From positions 79,778 through 143,777 of the forward strand of contig CAWDYQ010000005.1 of assembly GCA_963806645.1 (NCBI GenBank): 64,000 bases of DNA. Reading direction: 5' to 3'. The translations under genes and the position numbers were made by a program. This document shows, piece by piece, positions 4,701-36,748 of the stretch. Each line of letters begins with the position of its first letter. The first letter of the stretch is position 1. The notes below the pieces were generated by a model. It did no database searches. It saw only the letters and a list, made by a program, of their open reading frames with translations, and had not been told where the DNA came from. This DNA is from Candidatus Bathyarchaeota archaeon (GTDB taxonomy: Archaea; Thermoproteota; Bathyarchaeia; Bathyarchaeales; Bathyarchaeaceae).

Positions 4701-5852
4701 TTAGGTTTTGATGCGTATGACTTTTTCTAGATCAGGTTCACTTTTTTTCCGAAGCAGTTTAGGTACGTATGCACACGCTGGATCTGAGGCGAATAGGTCT
4801 CCAGTGTAGATTTCTGCTCGGGTTCTGCAACCTCCACAGATTTCCCGGTACTCGCATACTCCACATTTTCCTTTAAGGTTGCGTCTGTCTCTAAGTTTTT
4901 TGTGCAAATCATTTTTTTGCATTTCATCCCAGATTTCACTCATCGACTTACGCTTTATGTTTCCCATCCTGTAACCTTCATTAAAGCCGCAAGGACGAAT
5001 ATCACCATTTTCTAATAGTCCCATGTATCTGCTGCCAATGAAGCATTGACCCAGAAACTCGTTATTAAACCAGTAATCAAAATCTGGCATGTCTCTTTCT
5101 TTTGCGATTCTGGCAAAGAATGGACAGTAAACATTAATGCTCAGTTTTCCTTTGTATTCTTGCATCAGATCATAGATTTTGTTCATGACAACTTCATATT
5201 GTTGTGGGGTAGGAGCCAACTCTAGATGCTCTTGTGCTCTACCAACTGGAATATAATTGTGATAAACAACGCGGGTGGCGTTGTACATGTGTCCAAGTTC
5301 AGCAATATGATCAACTTCTGAGCAATTACGCTTATTTAGTGTTGTTACTATACAATCAAAAATTCCATTCTTTGACAAATTTTCTATTGCTTTGATGGCG
5401 GTTGCGTAAGAGCCTTTTCCGCGCGAGAGATCATTTGTTTCTTGTTTTCCGTCTAAGCTTACCGCGGTCATTACTTCGTTTTTTACGAGTTTGTCGAGGA
5501 TTTCTCCTTTAACATAATAACCATTTGTTATGAGGCTCACATTCATGCCTAGGCTTTTTGCGTGAGCGATAATCTCAAAAATATCTTTACGGACTAATGG
5601 TTCTCCGCCGCTTAACCCAAACCATTTTGCTCCCATTTCATGAAGTTCGTCAACTATTCGCATTCCACCTTTTGTATCAATCTCGTTTACTGCATTAGGG
5701 TTTGAAGCAAAACTGCAATACAAACAATTATAATTACAAGCTCTGGTACATCGCCATGTCATCATGTATAAGCGAGGTCGATTTCTTGTGTCGCCTTGAT
5801 TATTTTTCACTTTACTCCTTTCCATTCGTTTTTCTTGCTTTCCAACAATCAA
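4701..5852 (-). CDS. radical SAM protein with C-terminal SPASM domain (AhbD/NirJ-like)
   Basis: CNYNCLYC (CX3CX2C) cluster motif, GGEPLVRKD, and a C-terminal GKCGVCEYREICGGCRTRAEIYTGDLFASDPACAYVP auxiliary-cluster region typical of AhbD/NirJ-type enzymes. Confidence 0.85.
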   Translation of the reverse strand: MIVGKQEKRMERSKVKNNQGDTRNRPRLYMMTWRCTRACNYNCLYCSFASNPNAVNEIDTKGGMRIVDELHEMGAKWFGLSGGEPLVRKDIFEIIAHAKSLGMNVSLITNGYYVKGEILDKLVKNEVMTAVSLDGKQETNDLSRGKGSYATAIKAIENLSKNGIFDCIVTTLNKRNCSEVDHIAELGHMYNATRVVYHNYIPVGRAQEHLELAPTPQQYEVVMNKIYDLMQEYKGKLSINVYCPFFARIAKERDMPDFDYWFNNEFLGQCFIGSRYMGLLENGDIRPCGFNEGYRMGNIKRKSMSEIWDEMQKNDLHKKLRDRRNLKGKCGVCEYREICGGCRTRAEIYTGDLFASDPACAYVPKLLRKKSEPDLEKVIRIKT

Positions 5853-29599: not shown

Positions 29600-29800
29600 C
29601 CTGCTCCATACAACTCTTTACCGTGAAGTTATTCATTTGTTTTATCCTAAATTACAATAATGTTAAAGTATTTAATGCCATAATTGCAGATCGATTCCCC
29701 TGACTATATCAGAGCTTAAACATTATTCATGACTTCAATAAAAAATGTCAAATGTTTTAACATTAAATAATTGAGGAGCAACTATTTTGGTAGGAAAGAA

Positions 29801-30840
29801 ATGTTAGAGATTGACGGAAGTCAAAAGAGCGGCAGCGGAACGATATTACGGTTATCCATCGCACTTGCAGGTATCCTGGAAGAACCATTACACATTTTCA
29901 ATATACGTCACCGACGCAGCAAGCCTGGATTGAGGCCTCAACACCTTGAATCAGTTAATACAGCAGCAAAATTGTGTAATGCAGAAACTGAAGGGGCAGT
30001 GCTTGGTTCTAGGGAATTGTGGTTCAAACCAAATGGAATTGTAAACGGTGAGGTTAATGCAGAGATAGGGTACTGCTGGGAGTATTCCAATGCTGCTGCT
30101 AACTGTCTTGCCTATATGTGCTTACGCTAAGGGGGACGTAAGGGTTCATGTCGTTAACGGCGGCACAGACGTACGCCATGCACCAACGATTAATTATCTA
30201 AATTATGTACTCTTGCCAATGCTTGAACGAATGGGATTGAAATCTTCTTTAACAATCAAAAAGTTCGGATATTACCCAAAGGGGATGGGAGAGGTCATTT
30301 TGAATGTCTACAAAAATTCAAAACTTACATCTCTGCGATTAGAAAATTTCGGAGAAATAGAAGAAGTTGGAGGCATTTCCGTTTGCACTTTCTTGGAAAA
30401 ACAAAAGGTATCAGAGAGACAAGCTGTAACAGCCAAGAACATCCTGAAAAACATCGGTTACACTCCGAGACATCCAAGTCGTTAATGATAAATCCAATCC
30501 TCAGCAAAAGGGCAGTTCCTTGGTTTTATGGGCAAAAACAAACAAAGGTGTTCTATTGGGAGGAGATGCTATTGGAGAACTACGAAAATCTAGCGAAGCA
30601 GTAGGCAGAGAAGCCGCCGAAAACCTATTGAAAGAAACCAAGCAAAAAGCTACGGTGGATGAACATCTTGCGGACATGTTAGTGCCTTACATCGCTTTGG
30701 CAAACGGAAAATCAGCATACTTAACCAGAACGTTAACCGAACATTTAGATACAAACATCTGGCTTGTTGAAAAAATTTTGGACATAAAAATTCAAACAAC
30801 AAGAGTTGGAAACCTAATTCAAGTTGAAAAAGTAAAATAG
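29801..30840 (+). CDS. rtcA: RNA 3'-terminal phosphate cyclase, split in three ORFs
   Basis: MLEIDGSQKSGSGTILRLSIALAGILEEPLHIFNIRHRRSKPGLRPQHL is the RtcA N-terminus. It continues as GSIPMLLLTVLPICAYAKGDVRVHVVNGGTDVRHAPTINYL and then ...VDEHLADMLVPYIALANG in shifted frames. Confidence 0.85.
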
Positions 30841-32090: not shown

Positions 32091-32545
32091 TCACTGAGCC
32101 TCTAATCTAAAAGACGCTCTAAAGCAAATATAATAGTTATTACCAATGATTATACATTGATTTTTTTATTATATCAATTTTGGAAATATTACAAATCATG
32201 AAATATTACTAATTTCGGAAAGATTCAGGCGTAATTTAATAATTGTCAGATAAGAGTTTCCTATAATTTATTTATCATTTTTTTATTAGAATAACTATAT
32301 TTGTACCATATTAGCAAGATTGATTCAACGAGTTTTTGTTGGAAAATAAAGTTTCTGGATGCTAGTGTTTTGGAATAAAACAAAATACTTCTACTAGTAA
32401 ATGTTTCATTTCTAAGTCTCTGGTACTTTCTGTACTTCTAGTATATTAGCTAAACAATAAACAATCTTTCATTGTACAAGGAATAATCTGATGGTTCTGT
32501 TATCTGGTTACAAAAAGAGAAAAGAAAGTGAGATTTTGTTTAGAT

Positions 32546-33025
32546 CTATGTTGTTCTTTTTCTTTTGTAGATTAATGCTAGTAATGTTGCTGTCATGAAT
32601 AATGGTACTATTAGGATTGGTGGAAATTCTGGAATTTGTTGTCCATTTACGTATAACCATCCTGCTTCCCCCTCATAAGATATTTGATGGCATCCAGAAT
32701 TTGGGCCTTCCACTATTGAAAGGCTATCAGCTACAAAGGTACCATATGTTATTATTATGTTTTGATCGGGCAATAGCTGTACAGTGTAATTCTCTCCACT
32801 TTTAGTATTGATTGCTGATATTGTATTTGGAATTTCTAAGCCTGATGGTGGTTCAACAACTCTAAATTCCAAAGAACCAATTCCTAAGTTATTCTCAAGA
32901 AAGTTTGTTCCATAAGCATATACTTTGACCGAGTGCCAAGTTTGCGCACAAGTCAACGGAACAAAAAATAAAGCTGTAACAAGAATCAAAGTTGAAACAC
33001 CAATAAATCCAATTTTCTTATCCAT
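32546..33025 (-). CDS. secreted protein with a PEF-CTERM-like C-terminal sorting signal
   Basis: GGGGAGGTGAAAGA then ATG 33025. MDKKIGFIGVSTLILVTALFFVPLTCAQ is a signal peptide. The C-terminus reads ...QQIPEFPPILIVPLFMTATLLALIYKRKRTT (PEF, TM, basic tail). Confidence 0.6.
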   Translation of the reverse strand: MDKKIGFIGVSTLILVTALFFVPLTCAQTWHSVKVYAYGTNFLENNLGIGSLEFRVVEPPSGLEIPNTISAINTKSGENYTVQLLPDQNIIITYGTFVADSLSIVEGPNSGCHQISYEGEAGWLYVNGQQIPEFPPILIVPLFMTATLLALIYKRKRTT

Positions 33026-33090
33026 TCTTTCACCTCCCCTTGATGAATAACAAAAAAATGTTTTGTCTCTATTGATATTTAAAATTGGGT

Positions 33091-33114
33091 TGGGTGTACG
33101 TACCACCCACCCAC
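33091..33114. promoter_or_regulatory. GC-rich palindromic box, copy 1 (putative TrmB-type operator)
   Basis: TGGGTGTACGTACCACCCACCCAC. It lies 8 nt from ATATTTAA (33075-33082; TTAAATAT on the minus strand), about 65-90 nt upstream of ATG 33025, and 2 nt after the stop of the TrmB-like gene. Confidence 0.5.
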
Positions 33115-33115
33115 T

Positions 33116-33436
33116 TCAAAAATCACTGTTCCAACTAACGAGAAGTTCATTCTTACTTTTTTCCATAAAATTTGCTTGTTCCTTCTCTCTATTAATTAAG
33201 AGTTCTAGTGCTTCTTCAAAAGGTAAAGCAGAAAACGATATTCCGTCTTTATTGATTAATTCTTTAATTATTAAATTCTTAAGACTAGTAGAGATTTCAT
33301 GTTTAGAATAATTCAAAGTCCCAACTAAATCCACTACTTTTTGTGGACCTTTCTTGGAAATATAAACATAAATCTCAGCCTCTGTTCTTGTTAGTCCAAG
33401 ACTGATTAGTGCTTTTATTACTCGTTCTAAACTCAT
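33116..33436 (-). CDS. small TrmB-like HTH transcriptional regulator
   Basis: MSLERVIKALISLGLTRTEAEIYVYISKKGPQKVVDLVGTLNYSKHEISTSLKNLIIKELI matches the TrmB N-terminal wHTH pattern. I prefer ATG 33436 to the track start 33550, which overlaps the upstream gene. Confidence 0.65.
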   Translation of the reverse strand: MSLERVIKALISLGLTRTEAEIYVYISKKGPQKVVDLVGTLNYSKHEISTSLKNLIIKELINKDGISFSALPFEEALELLINREKEQANFMEKSKNELLVSWNSDF

Positions 33437-33455
33437 GTTATCACATCTTTTTCTG

Positions 33456-33473
33456 AAAAAAAGAAAAAAGGGG
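33456..33473 (-). terminator. oligo-T signal after the 33502..34519 gene
   Basis: The minus strand reads CCCCTTTTTTCTTTTTTT about 30 nt after the stop at 33502. Confidence 0.4.
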
Positions 33474-33501
33474 AAGAATAGAGATTGGAAAGTCTTCACA
33501 G

Positions 33502-34519
33502 TTATGGCTTTAGGAAGCCCCACCATGTGATAGGCCCAAATTCTATCCAATCATGCCCAGCCTTAATTGTTTGTCCTCTAAAAGCCCCAGTTCCTCTCAG
33601 GAATGCACTTGCTTTAGCTCTGTCATAAAATGGTGGAGTAGATTCAGTGGGAGCAATGTAGCCTTCGATAATAATTAGAGCTTTGCCTCTAAAAGTTCCT
33701 CCATCAATGTTAAACACGTATTTATCCCAAATCACAAGACCAACTCCAACATCTTGTGGTGTAATCAGAACCTTCCTCTTAGCATCAGCTGTTCCAGTAT
33801 AAGTTGGAACCCCATTAACATCAATTGTAATATCATAAGTCACTTCTGTAATTCGAAATATTTTGCCATTGTCTTTAATTTTCTCATAGATAATCTTTGA
33901 GACTGCATTAGAGAAATGTACGATAATTGGCGTGGGCCAACATTTTATTTTGCCTTCTCTGGTTAAATGTCGTATGTTTGCGCCTTCCGGGTCTTCAACA
34001 TAACCTGTAGATTCACCGGATATTTTGACTTTCTTTAGTGCCCCTGTCCCATATCCATAGAATTTTCCTTCGCTAAGTCCTGTTGTCATATCAACAATAT
34101 CTTTTACAATAAGAATTAGTGAACTTCCGTCAGCAAATGTGATTATGTCTTTGACATATACGTAAGATTTTTGGTTCACAAAATCAGCATCTGCATCAAT
34201 TATGCTATCATAATCATCAGGTACCTAAAGAAACCATTTCATATTCGTCATCTCCAGGCACTCCAAGCTGAAGTGATATTAAATCAGGAATCCAATCTGC
34301 ACCCTTGACATGCAACCATTCAGAATCAGGTGGAACTGTTCCTTCTGGTTCAAAAGTTCTTGTACCACCAACGGTATCTGCAGCACCGGACATTTCCAAT
34401 TTAAAATAGAGTTTATCACATCTTCTGCATCGTTTTGCTTCCACAACTCCAAGTAATGGTGAAGTTACAAGAACTAGTGTTAGAATAGTAATTGTCAACA
34501 TTCCAATTTTTTTATTCAT
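33502..34519 (-). CDS. secreted protein of unknown function (about 335 aa), one frame break near 34216
   Basis: GGGGGAGGTGAAAAA then ATG 34519. MNKKIGMLTITILTLVLVTSPLLGVVEA is a signal peptide. ORF 34217..34519 ends ...VSLGT*, and a 1-nt shift reads on as PDDYDSIIDADADFVNQKSYVYV... into ORF 33502..34179. Confidence 0.6.
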
Positions 34520-34624
34520 TTTTTCACCTCCCCCATGATGGATTATCCCTCTGATGGTTTGATCAGATTTTCTTTCTGATCTTCGATAGTTTCTTATGTG
34601 AAAAAATCATATTTAAGAACTAGC

Positions 34625-34647
34625 TGGGTGTACGTACACCCACCCAC
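34625..34647. promoter_or_regulatory. GC-rich palindromic box, copy 2 (perfect 16-bp palindrome GGGTGTACGTACACCC)
   Basis: TGGGTGTACGTACACCCACCCAC. It lies 8 nt from ATATTTAA (34609-34616), between the divergent genes 34519(-) and 34668(+). Confidence 0.5.
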
Positions 34648-34667
34648 TTACGATTTGGGGATAAAGA

Positions 34668-35129
34668 TTGAAGGGGACAATCAAAAAAACATTACGAGAT
34701 TTTGGTTTATCTGAAAAAGAAGTAGACATTTATATTCTTTTAGGAAAAAAGTGTCCCTTAAAAAGTGGAGAAATAGCTAAACAACTAAAACTAAACAAGG
34801 GTCAAGTTTATAGAAAATTAAAAAGTCTTCAAAAGAAAGGAGTTATTGAATCTACTCTAGAGTATCCTACAAGATATACTGCAGTTGAATTTGAGAAGAT
34901 TATTGACTCTTTTATTAAATCCAAAAGAGAAGAAGTTGATCAGATAGAAGAATCAAAGGATGATTTATTGTCTGATTGGAAGAAAATCAGTCAAACAGAA
35001 CTTGAATCTTCATTAGAACGATTTTCTGTAATTGAAGGAGAAAAAAAGATATTTCAAAAAATCTCTCAAATGATCAAAGAAACACAAAACACAGTTTTTG
35101 TCAATATCAAGTGTTTATGGTTTACTTAG
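34668..35129 (+). CDS. TrmB-family transcriptional regulator, intact N-terminal part
   Basis: LRDFGLSEKEVDIYILLGKKCPLKSGEIAKQLKLNKGQVYRKLKSLQKKGVIESTLEYPTRYTAVEFEKIIDSFI is the TrmB wHTH plus dimerisation helix. TTG start. Confidence 0.7.
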   Translation: MKGTIKKTLRDFGLSEKEVDIYILLGKKCPLKSGEIAKQLKLNKGQVYRKLKSLQKKGVIESTLEYPTRYTAVEFEKIIDSFIKSKREEVDQIEESKDDLLSDWKKISQTELESSLERFSVIEGEKKIFQKISQMIKETQNTVFVNIKCLWFT

Positions 35130-35860
35130 AGCAGATCATTATGGAATCTTTGAAAATATTCTAAACCATCCATTACACTCAAGCAATTAAAATTTAGATT
35201 TCTTAACCCAACTAACTCAAAAAACGATCTGAAACCAATAAAGACACTTTTATCGAAAGATTGAAGTCTGGATCTGATTTTAAGGGAAGAGATCCTGAAA
35301 GAAATTCAACAATATTCGCCAAGAATGGTAATCAAAGACAACGAAGAAATATTATTGTTTATTTCAGATGAGAATGATTCTTCAACAAGAAAAATTGAAA
35401 CTGTTTTGTGCACAAATTGTCAGAAGTATCATTAAATCATTTACGTCTGTTTTTGAAGATTTATGGAATGAAGTCATCAGATCTCAGAAAAAAGGATTGT
35501 TGAACTTGAAACTGGAAAACCACCACCTGTCATGGAGTTGATAAAAGATCCGAAAACTGGCAAGAAACAATATATTATGATGCATTAGATCAAGCAAGAA
35601 AAGAGATTCTGATTGTTACTTCTCCTAAACGTACTGATTGAGAATATCAAAGAATATTGACTGGTAAGAAAATGGTGTAAAAAAGGGGTTTCAGACAAAA
35701 ATAATGGCGCCAATTACAACTGAAAATCTGAAGGCTACCCAAAAGCTATTGTCATGCAGTGAAGTTAGGCATATTCCTGTTGGTTATAGGGAAACAACAA
35801 TAATTGATGAACAAGAAACTTTTTCAATTTAACAAACCTCTGCTCATCAGACTTTGATAA
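35130..35860 (+). pseudogene. frame-scrambled continuation of the TrmB-like gene (C-terminal domain remnants)
   Basis: No ORF of 60 aa or more, yet consecutive pieces in changing frames read like a TrmB C-terminal domain: SISSVYGLLRADHYGIFENIL; ILREEILKEIQQYSPRMVIKDNEEILLFISDENDSSTRKIETVLCTNCQ; SIIKSFTSVFEDLWNE; DALDQARKEILIVTSPKRTD; MAPITTENLKATQKLLSCSEVRHIPVGYRETTIIDEQETFSI. Confidence 0.45.
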
Positions 35861-36049: not shown

Positions 36050-36748
36050 ATGAAAAGAATAAGTCTATTTCAGGACTTTAAAGAAAAAAAGAATAAATAT
36101 TCAGAAAAAGATATCTTAAAAAAATTCCAAACTACTAAAAAAGTTTATTTACCCAAATCTAAAAAAGATTTTTCATCAATAACTGCCAGGTACTTTGGAG
36201 CTGCAGCGTTTTCAATCATTCATCCACCCAAAGAATTGAATCTTCCAGATTTTATTATTGGGGTTTGGGATTTTAATGATAAATCGACATTTGGAAAAAA
36301 TGATTTAATGCATATTTATTTACCGACTAAGGAAAAAAATAATAGTTTATTTGATATTGCTGCAATTGTTCAAAACAATCCCAGTTCTTATGAATTTCGA
36401 AAAAATGTTTTTAGAGGAACAAATATACCAAATTATATTCATTTAGTTGAAAAAGATAAATTCAACGTAATTACAAAAGGAAATACACTTTTTGTAGGTT
36501 GGACATTTTCAATTTCTTTAATTGACTCAAAATACGTAATTCCTCCATCTTGTGTTCTTTTTGAAGGTTATGGTAATGTTGAATCTGGTGAATTGACAAC
36601 TCATTTTCCTTATGGTCGAAGATATGAAGCTGTGCATAATACTTTTGATGCATTTACCACATATTTCCATTCATCTTCAAAATATTCTGGACCTGGAACT
36701 GAAGCTTACATTAGTAGAGAATTTTTATTAACAGCCCATCCTGCTTAA
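36050..36748 (+). CDS. hypothetical protein, possibly the C-terminal part of the preceding TrmB-like gene
   Basis: 232-aa track ORF. The same frame is open from 35861 (…ENVFFTNDLDYINQTKKILFNLWEKT...) with no start codon there, so it may continue the upstream gene. Confidence 0.45.
   Translation: MKRISLFQDFKEKKNKYSEKDILKKFQTTKKVYLPKSKKDFSSITARYFGAAAFSIIHPPKELNLPDFIIGVWDFNDKSTFGKNDLMHIYLPTKEKNNSLFDIAAIVQNNPSSYEFRKNVFRGTNIPNYIHLVEKDKFNVITKGNTLFVGWTFSISLIDSKYVIPPSCVLFEGYGNVESGELTTHFPYGRRYEAVHNTFDAFTTYFHSSSKYSGPGTEAYISREFLLTAHPA

Follow-up and report, generated by a model that had tools for sequence, protein, structure and literature searches.

The 64,000-nucleotide (nt) stretch of the Candidatus Bathyarchaeota archaeon contig CAWDYQ010000005.1 analysed here (hereafter, the window) carries two copies of a GC-rich palindromic box, which we read as a probable operator. 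Each copy lies 8 nt from a TATA-like element, as the initial annotation reported and as direct reading of the window bears out. Around the boxes are two genes for secreted proteins, here called P1 and P2, and two genes for TrmB-type proteins with a winged helix-turn-helix (wHTH) domain, one small and one long. The features of the locus are given below in window coordinates, where BRE stands for the recognition element of transcription factor B (TFB) and aa for amino acids.

32546 to 33025, minus strand: P1, a secreted/anchored protein of 159 aa, with the box-1 promoter
33026 to 33074, minus strand: P1 5' leader, with ribosome-binding site GGGGAGGTGA at 33030-33039
33075 to 33082, minus strand: TATA-like element of the P1 promoter, TTAAATAT, 8 nt from copy 1
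33083 to 33090, minus strand: 8-nt spacer at the BRE position of the P1 promoter, ACCCAATT
33091 to 33114, minus strand: box copy 1, TGGGTGTACGTACCACCCACCCAC, the copy 2 sequence plus one extra base
33116 to 33436, minus strand: small TrmB-like wHTH protein of 106 aa (Pfam PF01978, E=1.4e-6)
33502 to 34519, minus strand: P2, a secreted protein of ~338 aa with signal peptide MNKKIGMLTITILTL.. and one frameshift near 34217-34226, with the box-2 promoter
34524 to 34608, minus strand: P2 5' leader, with a 7-bp hairpin at 34561-34582 and ribosome-binding site GGGGGAGGTGA at 34524-34534
34609 to 34616, both strands: TATA-like element at box 2, ATATTTAA / TTAAATAT, 8 nt from copy 2
34617 to 34624, minus strand: 8-nt spacer at the BRE position of box 2, GCTAGTTC
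34625 to 34647, minus strand: box copy 2, TGGGTGTACGTACACCCACCCAC (minus strand GTGGGTGGGTGTACGTACACCCA), the proposed operator in the divergent promoter of the long TrmB and P2 genes
34648 to 34667, plus strand: interval from box 2 to the long TrmB start codon TTG, with GGGGAT resembling a Shine-Dalgarno sequence and, two codons ahead of the TTG, an in-frame TAA
34668 to 36748, plus strand: long TrmB-family regulator gene of ~690 codons, with a TTG start 20 nt from the box

Copy 2 contains the perfect 16-bp palindrome GGGTGTACGTACACCC recognised initially, although with the flanking T and A the palindrome reaches 18 nt (TGGGTGTACGTACACCCA), to which a distal extension is attached. The motif can be written as TGGGTG-N6-CACCCA, with a GTAC-GTAC core and a one-sided GTGGGT extension, and on the minus strand both copies read GTGGGTGGGTG(G)TACGTACACCCA-N8-TTAAATAT. 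The N8 spacers of the two copies differ (ACCCAATT versus GCTAGTTC). Copy 1 equals copy 2 plus one extra C, as annotated; its minus strand is GTGGGTGGGTG-G-TACGTACACCCA, the extra base coming after GTAC. This base occurs in no other clade member, and it has no independent support because the sole other variants with one added base came from unrelated contigs. It falls outside the insertion-rich patches of the assembly described further on.

Given a window G+C content of 30-40%, the GC-rich box is conspicuous, as had been claimed. A scan allowing up to three mismatches found two boxes within the 64 kb, against 0.00-0.01 expected by chance, and no third copy was present in the window at up to three or up to five mismatches (python scan). 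A dispersed repeat or miniature inverted-repeat transposable element (MITE), the alternative named in the initial annotation, was not encountered in the sequences scanned: both of the window's copies are in promoters.

The box recurs in related loci, here numbered L001 to L018. Twelve distinct promoter instances were obtained from at least six assemblies: two in the window, three in L017, and one each in L001, L004/5, L007, L008, L011, L012/13 and L016. A scan of 185,579 representative genomes with the 20-nt form of the box, GGGTGGGTG-N(0,1)-TACGTACACCC, gave one match, in the Bathyarchaeota metagenome-assembled genome L001, where a perfect box is followed by 8 nt, TTAAATAT and a P1 orthologue of 39% identity. 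The same arrangement stands before a P1 orthologue of 75% identity in L004/L005, which was located by protein search. Scanning metagenomes with the 18-nt palindrome yielded five AT-rich contigs representing four distinct promoters (L007, L008, L011 and L012/L013, the last two counted as one promoter, having the same sequence). The perfect 18-nt palindrome, with the GTGGGT extension and the 8-nt spacing, is thereby found at six further distinct promoters on Bathyarchaeota-type contigs. The full dyad symmetry of copy 2 over these 18 nt was counted in seven external instances. P1 orthologue promoters carry the perfect version in L001, L004/L005, L008 and L012/L013, and the P1 orthologues that follow the box share 39-75% protein identity. 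The copy 2 box is identical in L007, L008 and L011, in the same position relative to the long TrmB gene.

When aligned on the box, the instances read (G)TGGGT-GGGTGTACGTACACCCA-N8-TTAAATAT, with the variant TTATATAC in L008. The GTGGGT extension is distal to the TATA element, i.e., has the same polarity, in 12/12 instances, and the spacing to TTAAATAT or a close variant is exactly 8 nt in the nine instances outside L017. The three L017 copies present another arrangement, constant among themselves. A TATA-like element next to the box is kept in all instances. In terms of conservation, calculated from eight instances with window copy 1 and the L017 copies left out, the 23-nt box presents 1.91 bits per column, the spacer 1.22 (consensus.C.a.aTt), the TATA element 1.76, the distal flank 0.63, and a following 44-nt stretch of leader 0.54; pairwise, the instances are on average 96% identical over the box and 33% over the leader. 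The comparison of orthologous loci suggested by the initial annotation was thus run, and the box is far more conserved than its flanks in related genomes.

The genes downstream of the boxes belong either to the P1 family or to a second, loose signal-peptide family. The box marks a promoter subset and not a gene family, because several P1 homologues (P0016 in L002, P0025 in L003, P0014 in L006, and L013:2681) have no box at the promoter, not even a degenerate one. No degenerate copies were found elsewhere in ~170 kb of related loci. A TrmB gene near P0016 in L002 was also considered; it is a different short TrmB paralogue, with no box. Four other metagenome matches (L009, L010, L014 and L015, 39-64% GC) were discarded as unrelated, L014 being a terminator hairpin after a bacterial sucD. 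L015 (JAESGR010000120.1, 64% G+C) has three GGTGTACGTACACC palindromes, at 4744, 11436 and 11624, one of them within a longer inverted repeat (caacaggggct..agcccctgttg); by its look this is a repetitive extragenic palindromic (REP)-like element or a terminator, unrelated to the Bathyarchaeota box.

Conservation of this all-or-none, almost perfect kind could also be produced if box and TATA formed a promoter cassette that is mobile or prone to recombination, spreads through duplication and gene conversion, and owes its uniform sequence to concerted evolution instead of to a binding protein. L011, which joins an L007-like TrmB side to an L008-like leader, and boxes 2 and 3 of L017, which lie in recently duplicated promoters, agree with such a history. 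However, similarity stops at the edges of the box and the TATA element, with neither terminal repeats nor target duplications; there are one to three copies per locus, always in a promoter and always with the same polarity; and no viral contig matched the box, while representative species gave a single genome match. In addition, L017 box 1, whose leader is unrelated to those of boxes 2 and 3, carries the same variant as they do. We consider the cassette very unlikely.

In the L011 mosaic (1-1727), the TrmB side is ~90% like L007, the leader is like that of L008, and the 8-nt spacer equals that of window copy 1. The secreted gene downstream and the small wHTH gene are decayed (ATG to ATA; a truncated LSLERIIKAL). 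This suggests recombination at the box/TATA together with local gene loss.

The palindrome might alternatively act as RNA, as a terminator or roadblock hairpin for the small wHTH transcript (copy 1) or as a hairpin in the 5' untranslated region of the long TrmB mRNA (copy 2). As RNA, copy 1 folds at -20.1 kcal/mol (z = -3.3) and is followed by AAUUUUAAAU; it begins 1 nt past the small wHTH stop codon, upstream of the P1 promoter, and L017 box 2 is placed alike. These two are the only instances at the 3' end of a co-directional gene with a T-run. Most instances are in divergent intergenic regions: L001, L004, L007, L008, L011, L016 and window copy 2 have no co-directional upstream gene. Fixed TATA distance and polarity are DNA-level promoter features, the box has no match in Rfam, and archaeal termination depends on oligo-T, not on hairpins. 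A role as RNA is hence regarded as highly improbable.

In the window, L007, L008 and L011, the long TrmB TTG is found 16-20 nt past the distal box edge. Because these loci had been found through the box, further loci were retrieved via protein similarity instead: L016, L017 and L018 were chosen by similarity to the long TrmB protein, independently of the box. L016 (59% identity) has GTGGGTGGTTGTACGTACACCCA-N8-TTAAATGC, with the regulator TTG 21 nt to one side and, on the other, a truncated P1-like gene in divergent orientation. In L017 (52% identity) a box is also within 16-21 nt of the long TrmB TTG, and the gene order is that of the window: long TrmB, box, secreted gene, small TrmB, box, secreted gene, box, secreted gene. 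The L017 boxes, three in number, are of a single variant, GGGTGTACATGTACCC. The box adjoins the long TrmB gene in six loci, and wherever a clade locus could be examined the regulator gene has such a box beside it. L018 (43% identity) keeps the synteny and has a different palindrome, AGTAAC-N8-GTTACT, at the box position; the recognition helix of its long TrmB reads AKPVVFR, compared with NKGQVYR in the box-bearing loci. Linkage and co-variation would be the pattern expected of a factor and its operator, in what is a small sample.

The same loci bear on whether the operator is bound by the small sensor-less TrmB-like protein (33116-33436), or by an unlinked factor, with the long TrmB a mere neighbour. 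The small protein comprises a DNA-binding domain and a coiled coil, without a sensor domain, and is a paralogue of the long TrmB N-terminus. Its gene is syntenic in the window, L007, L017, L018 and the P0082 locus, its recognition helix changes too in L018, where the palindrome changes, and both copy 1 and L017 box 2 directly follow its stop codon. However, L016 has the box and the long TrmB with an unrelated HTH_45 gene at the small-TrmB position, and in L008 (a contig of 1.2 kb) box and long TrmB are likewise present, P1 being followed by a non-HTH gene. Because neither has a small TrmB at the usual place, the long protein is favoured as the binder. Moreover, the distance from the box to the long TrmB start is fixed (16-21 nt in the six loci), whereas the position of the box relative to the small gene varies. 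Binding by the small protein or an unlinked factor is considered unlikely.

The window open reading frame (ORF) at 34668-35129 matches Pfam PF01978 with E=3e-15. The initial annotation described two TrmB-like wHTH genes by the boxes; both are of genuine TrmB type, yet the ORF at 34668 is only the start of one ~690-codon gene, to which the ORF at 36050 also belongs. Relative to L007, the window gene has ~17 insertions of 1-2 nt, most of them (~15) clustered at 35085-35860 and not in homopolymers. An RtcA-like gene at 29771-30840 is likewise split into three ORFs, and most other window genes are long and intact. Since the damage is clustered and insertion-biased, these patches look more like unpolished assembly than uniform pseudogene decay.

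Given that frameshifts interrupt the window copy, the match to the effector domain was measured on the intact 685-aa L007 orthologue, which presents TrmB (PF01978) at 7e-15 and Regulator_TrmB (PF11495) at 3e-5. The latter scores 23.7 bits, against a cut-off of 22.2, and is listed for many homologues. An AlphaFold2 model of a close relative (predicted local distance difference test, pLDDT, 83) has a wHTH, a long helix at 75-109, two PLD-like alpha/beta modules, and a C-terminal beta domain; Foldseek with this model returned TrmBL2 (E=1e-12) and TrmB 3QPH (E=2e-8). Over 431 proteins of ~680-690 aa make up the family, and of the labelled ones almost all come from Bathyarchaeota. Judged by domain matches and the predicted fold, the window gene at 34668 is a TrmB-family regulator.

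On these comparisons, we consider it fairly probable that the box is the cis-regulatory operator of a small secreted/surface-protein regulon in one Bathyarchaeota clade, with a dimer of the ~685-aa TrmB as the likeliest binder. The suggestion of the initial annotation that the box is the operator of one or both TrmB-like proteins is supported, at the level of sequence comparison, by conservation, by fixed polarity and spacing, and by adjacency.

The promoter geometry differs between the two sides of the box. At the secreted-protein promoters, the box would end where the BRE position begins, at ~-38 to -60. On the regulator side, the TATA element at 34609-34616 is the sole AT-rich candidate for both P2 (minus strand) and the long TrmB (plus strand), and no other AT-rich element exists in the 16-21 nt before the regulator TTG in the window, L016 or L017. 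The initial annotation had placed copy 2 about 20 nt before this TTG, with a shared AT-rich TATA; the distance is indeed 20 nt. Orthologues have GTGAT/GAGTGAT as the counterpart of the GGGGAT between box and TTG. With the TATA centre near 34612.5, transcription of the regulator would begin within the box, near 34637-34640, and give a ~28-nt leader. Relative to this transcript, the predicted bound dimer would cover ~-14 to +8, the classical archaeal repressor position. Since the sole reachable TATA is on the far side of the box, the box would overlie the predicted start site of the regulator, which implies autorepression. Transcription from a single TATA box can go both ways in P. furiosus, the two start sites being 49-50 bp apart (PMC6640164).

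For the secreted genes we lean towards activation by the regulator, as a somewhat better than even expectation. The strict 8-nt phasing would imply stereospecific contact and thus favours activation, whereas the near-consensus TATA (TTTAAATA) favours repression. A pure repressor site would have a dimer abutting the BRE and hindering the assembly of TFB and TATA-binding protein (TBP) both ways, so that secreted genes and regulator stay off until ligand release. With a near-consensus TATA and a moderately conserved spacer at the BRE position, an activator should not be needed; box-less P1 homologues have equally strong TATA elements; and classical TrmB is a repressor released by ligand. However, the box overlaps neither the BRE nor the TATA of the secreted genes, archaeal sites wholly upstream of the BRE typically activate (TrmBL1/Tgr, Ptr2), and the invariant phasing in nine instances suggests stereospecific contact over occlusion. 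Pure repression is considered doubtful, if a serious contender.

In the mechanism we propose, a regulator dimer on the box, beside the BRE, could contact TFB/TBP, probably stimulating initiation at the secreted genes. The regulator gene would be transcribed from the same TATA in the opposite direction, and box binding would block RNA polymerase, resulting in self-repression. A ligand of the sensor domains would set box occupancy. The small paralogue without a sensor domain, whose gene comes just after the first gene under box control, may tune the system, either as a competitor at the box or through heterodimers.

A more elaborate version, which we offer tentatively and hold to be rather unlikely as a whole, combines one quasi-symmetric TATA for two divergent genes, an operator acting as direction switch, feedback by the small TrmB, and concerted operator-regulator co-evolution across the regulon. 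With the operator free, pre-initiation complexes would form towards the regulator gene, and transcription would run through the box. With the long TrmB bound, the regulator direction would be blocked and TFB recruited to the adjacent BRE, turning the TATA towards the secreted gene; the small TrmB would feed back by competing for the box or poisoning the dimer. Concerted co-evolution is included because the three L017 boxes share a variant and because palindrome and recognition helix are both new in L018.

Several observations weigh against an operator of the long TrmB that activates the secreted genes. Four of the six TrmB-adjacent instances were found by box search, and only L016 and L017 are unbiased. 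P1 promoters with the box in L001, L004 and L012/13 have no TrmB gene in the available flanks, so the link to the regulator relies there on action in trans. Co-variation with the box is about equally good for the small wHTH protein and the long one, and the two candidate binders are therefore not cleanly separated. Operators are not usually conserved in this all-or-none, nearly perfect way. Part of the conservation could come from gene conversion or recombination among copies (the L011 mosaic, the three identical L017 copies), although such a contribution does not replace the need for a function of the box. A near-consensus core-promoter TATA, by its sequence, fits repression as well as activation. 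Finally, with a broken regulator gene and an extra base in copy 1, the system may be inactive in this genome, unless these are assembly errors.

Concerning the secreted proteins, P1 presents a signal peptide, an all-beta domain of ~100 aa, and a C-terminal PEF..TM..KRKRTT tail (TM, transmembrane). The tail, PEFPPILIVPLFMTATLLALIYKRKRTT, is invariant in the family and modelled as a helix; among homologues P0012-P0025 it is almost invariant (PEFPPILIVPLFMTATLLALIYRRKRTT) and resembles a PEF-CTERM archaeosortase sorting signal, with no NCBIfam family at E<=1. A structure model of P1 (pLDDT 78.6) has no meaningful fold match in the PDB (best E=0.03, TM-score below 0.2) and thus offers no hint of function. 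One P1 paralogue, P0022, is on the same 182.9-kb contig, outside the window. A word-indexed protein search for P2 relatives returned P2 alone. P2 is related to L017 proteins of 393 aa (E=2e-11) and 184 aa, both behind boxes, and the second loose signal-peptide family comprises P2, the 204-aa protein of L007, and the 184-, 195- and 393-aa proteins of L017, several members having a G-W-P motif at or near the C-terminus.

The P1 and P2 genes both start with GGGGAGGTGAAA(G/A)AATG, their products begin MDKKIGF.. and MNKKIGM.., and the two genes are 91% identical over a 32-nt block that covers the ribosome-binding site and the first codons, while the proteins have no homology past the signal peptide. 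The near-identical starts and similar signal peptides pointed out initially are therefore real, although they are not box-specific: across the lineage, secreted-protein genes tend to have the MNKKIG / GGAGGTGA start, at box-less promoters too.

Some further features of these genes were observed in passing. Leaders of secreted genes adjoining the long TrmB contain a 7-8-bp hairpin (window 34561-34582 on the minus strand, L007 3468-3488, L008 134-156, L011 1110-1133), with compensatory changes between loci (GAUCAGA/UCUGAUC, UGAUCGG/CCGAUCA, UAAUCGG/CCGAUUA); it is not present in P1-type leaders. Between P2 and the small wHTH gene (33437-33501, minus strand) is a T-run, CCCCTTTTTTCTTTTTTTCAG, which could be an archaeal oligo-T terminator, so that the small wHTH gene may not simply share the P2 transcript; in L007 a similar T-run is followed by a TATA-like TTTATTAAAT. 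Downstream of P1, a non-coding block is conserved (TTGTACAATGAAAGATTGTTTATTGTTTAGCTAAT...GAAATGAAACATTTA; window ~32390-32480 on the minus strand, L013 ~5715-5800, L001 7905-7960, L004 ~2880-2920). The block comprises the promoter and initial codons (MKHL..) of the gene that follows, whose product has 209 aa in L013; the window version stops after ~15 codons and is only a remnant. Upstream of P1-family genes, a gene for a small four-cysteine protein (..CSVCGGYYIEPAPF) is a conserved neighbour (L002 5706-5882, L004 1548-1730, L003 ~60-145, L013 7241-7579), and in L002 and L003 this gene directly precedes a box-less P1 promoter.

Among known archaeal systems, activators binding directly upstream of the BRE include Ptr2 (M. 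jannaschii), TFB-RF1 (P. furiosus), and the GvpE upstream element (haloarchaea). Like their sites, the box abuts the BRE at ~-38 to -60 with strict spacing; unlike them, it involves a different protein family, and its core promoter is near-consensus, whereas TATA or BRE is weak there. A second comparison is TrmBL1/Tgr with the Thermococcales glycolytic motif (TGM, TATCAC-N5-GTGATA) in Pyrococcus and Thermococcus. Shared with it, as far as sequence and models suggest, are a TrmB-family wHTH with a coiled-coil dimer, a palindromic operator, and a C-terminal ligand-sensing region. The position-dependent outcome of that system (repression downstream of the TATA, activation upstream of BRE/TATA) is predicted for the Bathyarchaeota box as well. 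The motifs, however, are unrelated (TGGGTG-N6-CACCCA here), the regulator here is twice as long, with two PLD-like subdomains and an extra beta domain of ~220 aa in the model, and the predicted targets are secreted/surface proteins of Bathyarchaeota instead of sugar-metabolism genes. TrmB of Thermococcus litoralis / P. furiosus (3QPH, 2F5T) and TrmBL2 (5BOX) resemble the long protein in the PF01978 and PF11495 matches and in the Foldseek results, yet identity is only 13-19%, and the long protein adds a duplicated PLD-like module and the C-terminal beta domain. Finally, as in the bidirectional BRE-TATA-BRE promoters of P. furiosus (Gruenberger et al. 2019, PMC6640164), one quasi-symmetric TATA could serve both directions with starts ~50 bp apart, and the spacing of TATA centre and TrmB TTG, 56 nt, fits that geometry. 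In contrast with P. furiosus, where the second transcript is mostly non-functional antisense RNA (PMC6640164), it would here be the regulator mRNA, and the operator is between TATA and start codon, on one side only.

The searchable literature contains no description of the operator motif, of the TrmB subfamily of ~685 aa, or of the putative secreted-protein regulon, nor of any Bathyarchaeota regulon. The regulatory logic nevertheless follows known TrmB-family systems. For annotation, it should be considered that the local assembly contains insertion-rich patches. Bathyarchaeota are abundant sediment archaea with, to our knowledge, few or no cultured representatives, and in this largely uncultured lineage the locus offers a testable factor-operator pair: a defined 23-nt site, a regulator with intact orthologues, and the prediction of transcription start sites ~50 bp apart around one TATA box. 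If the proposed system is true, it would show how Bathyarchaeota switch on a set of secreted/surface proteins, and would extend the position-dependent TrmB logic to a family member that is much larger, has a different architecture, and counts more than 400 relatives.

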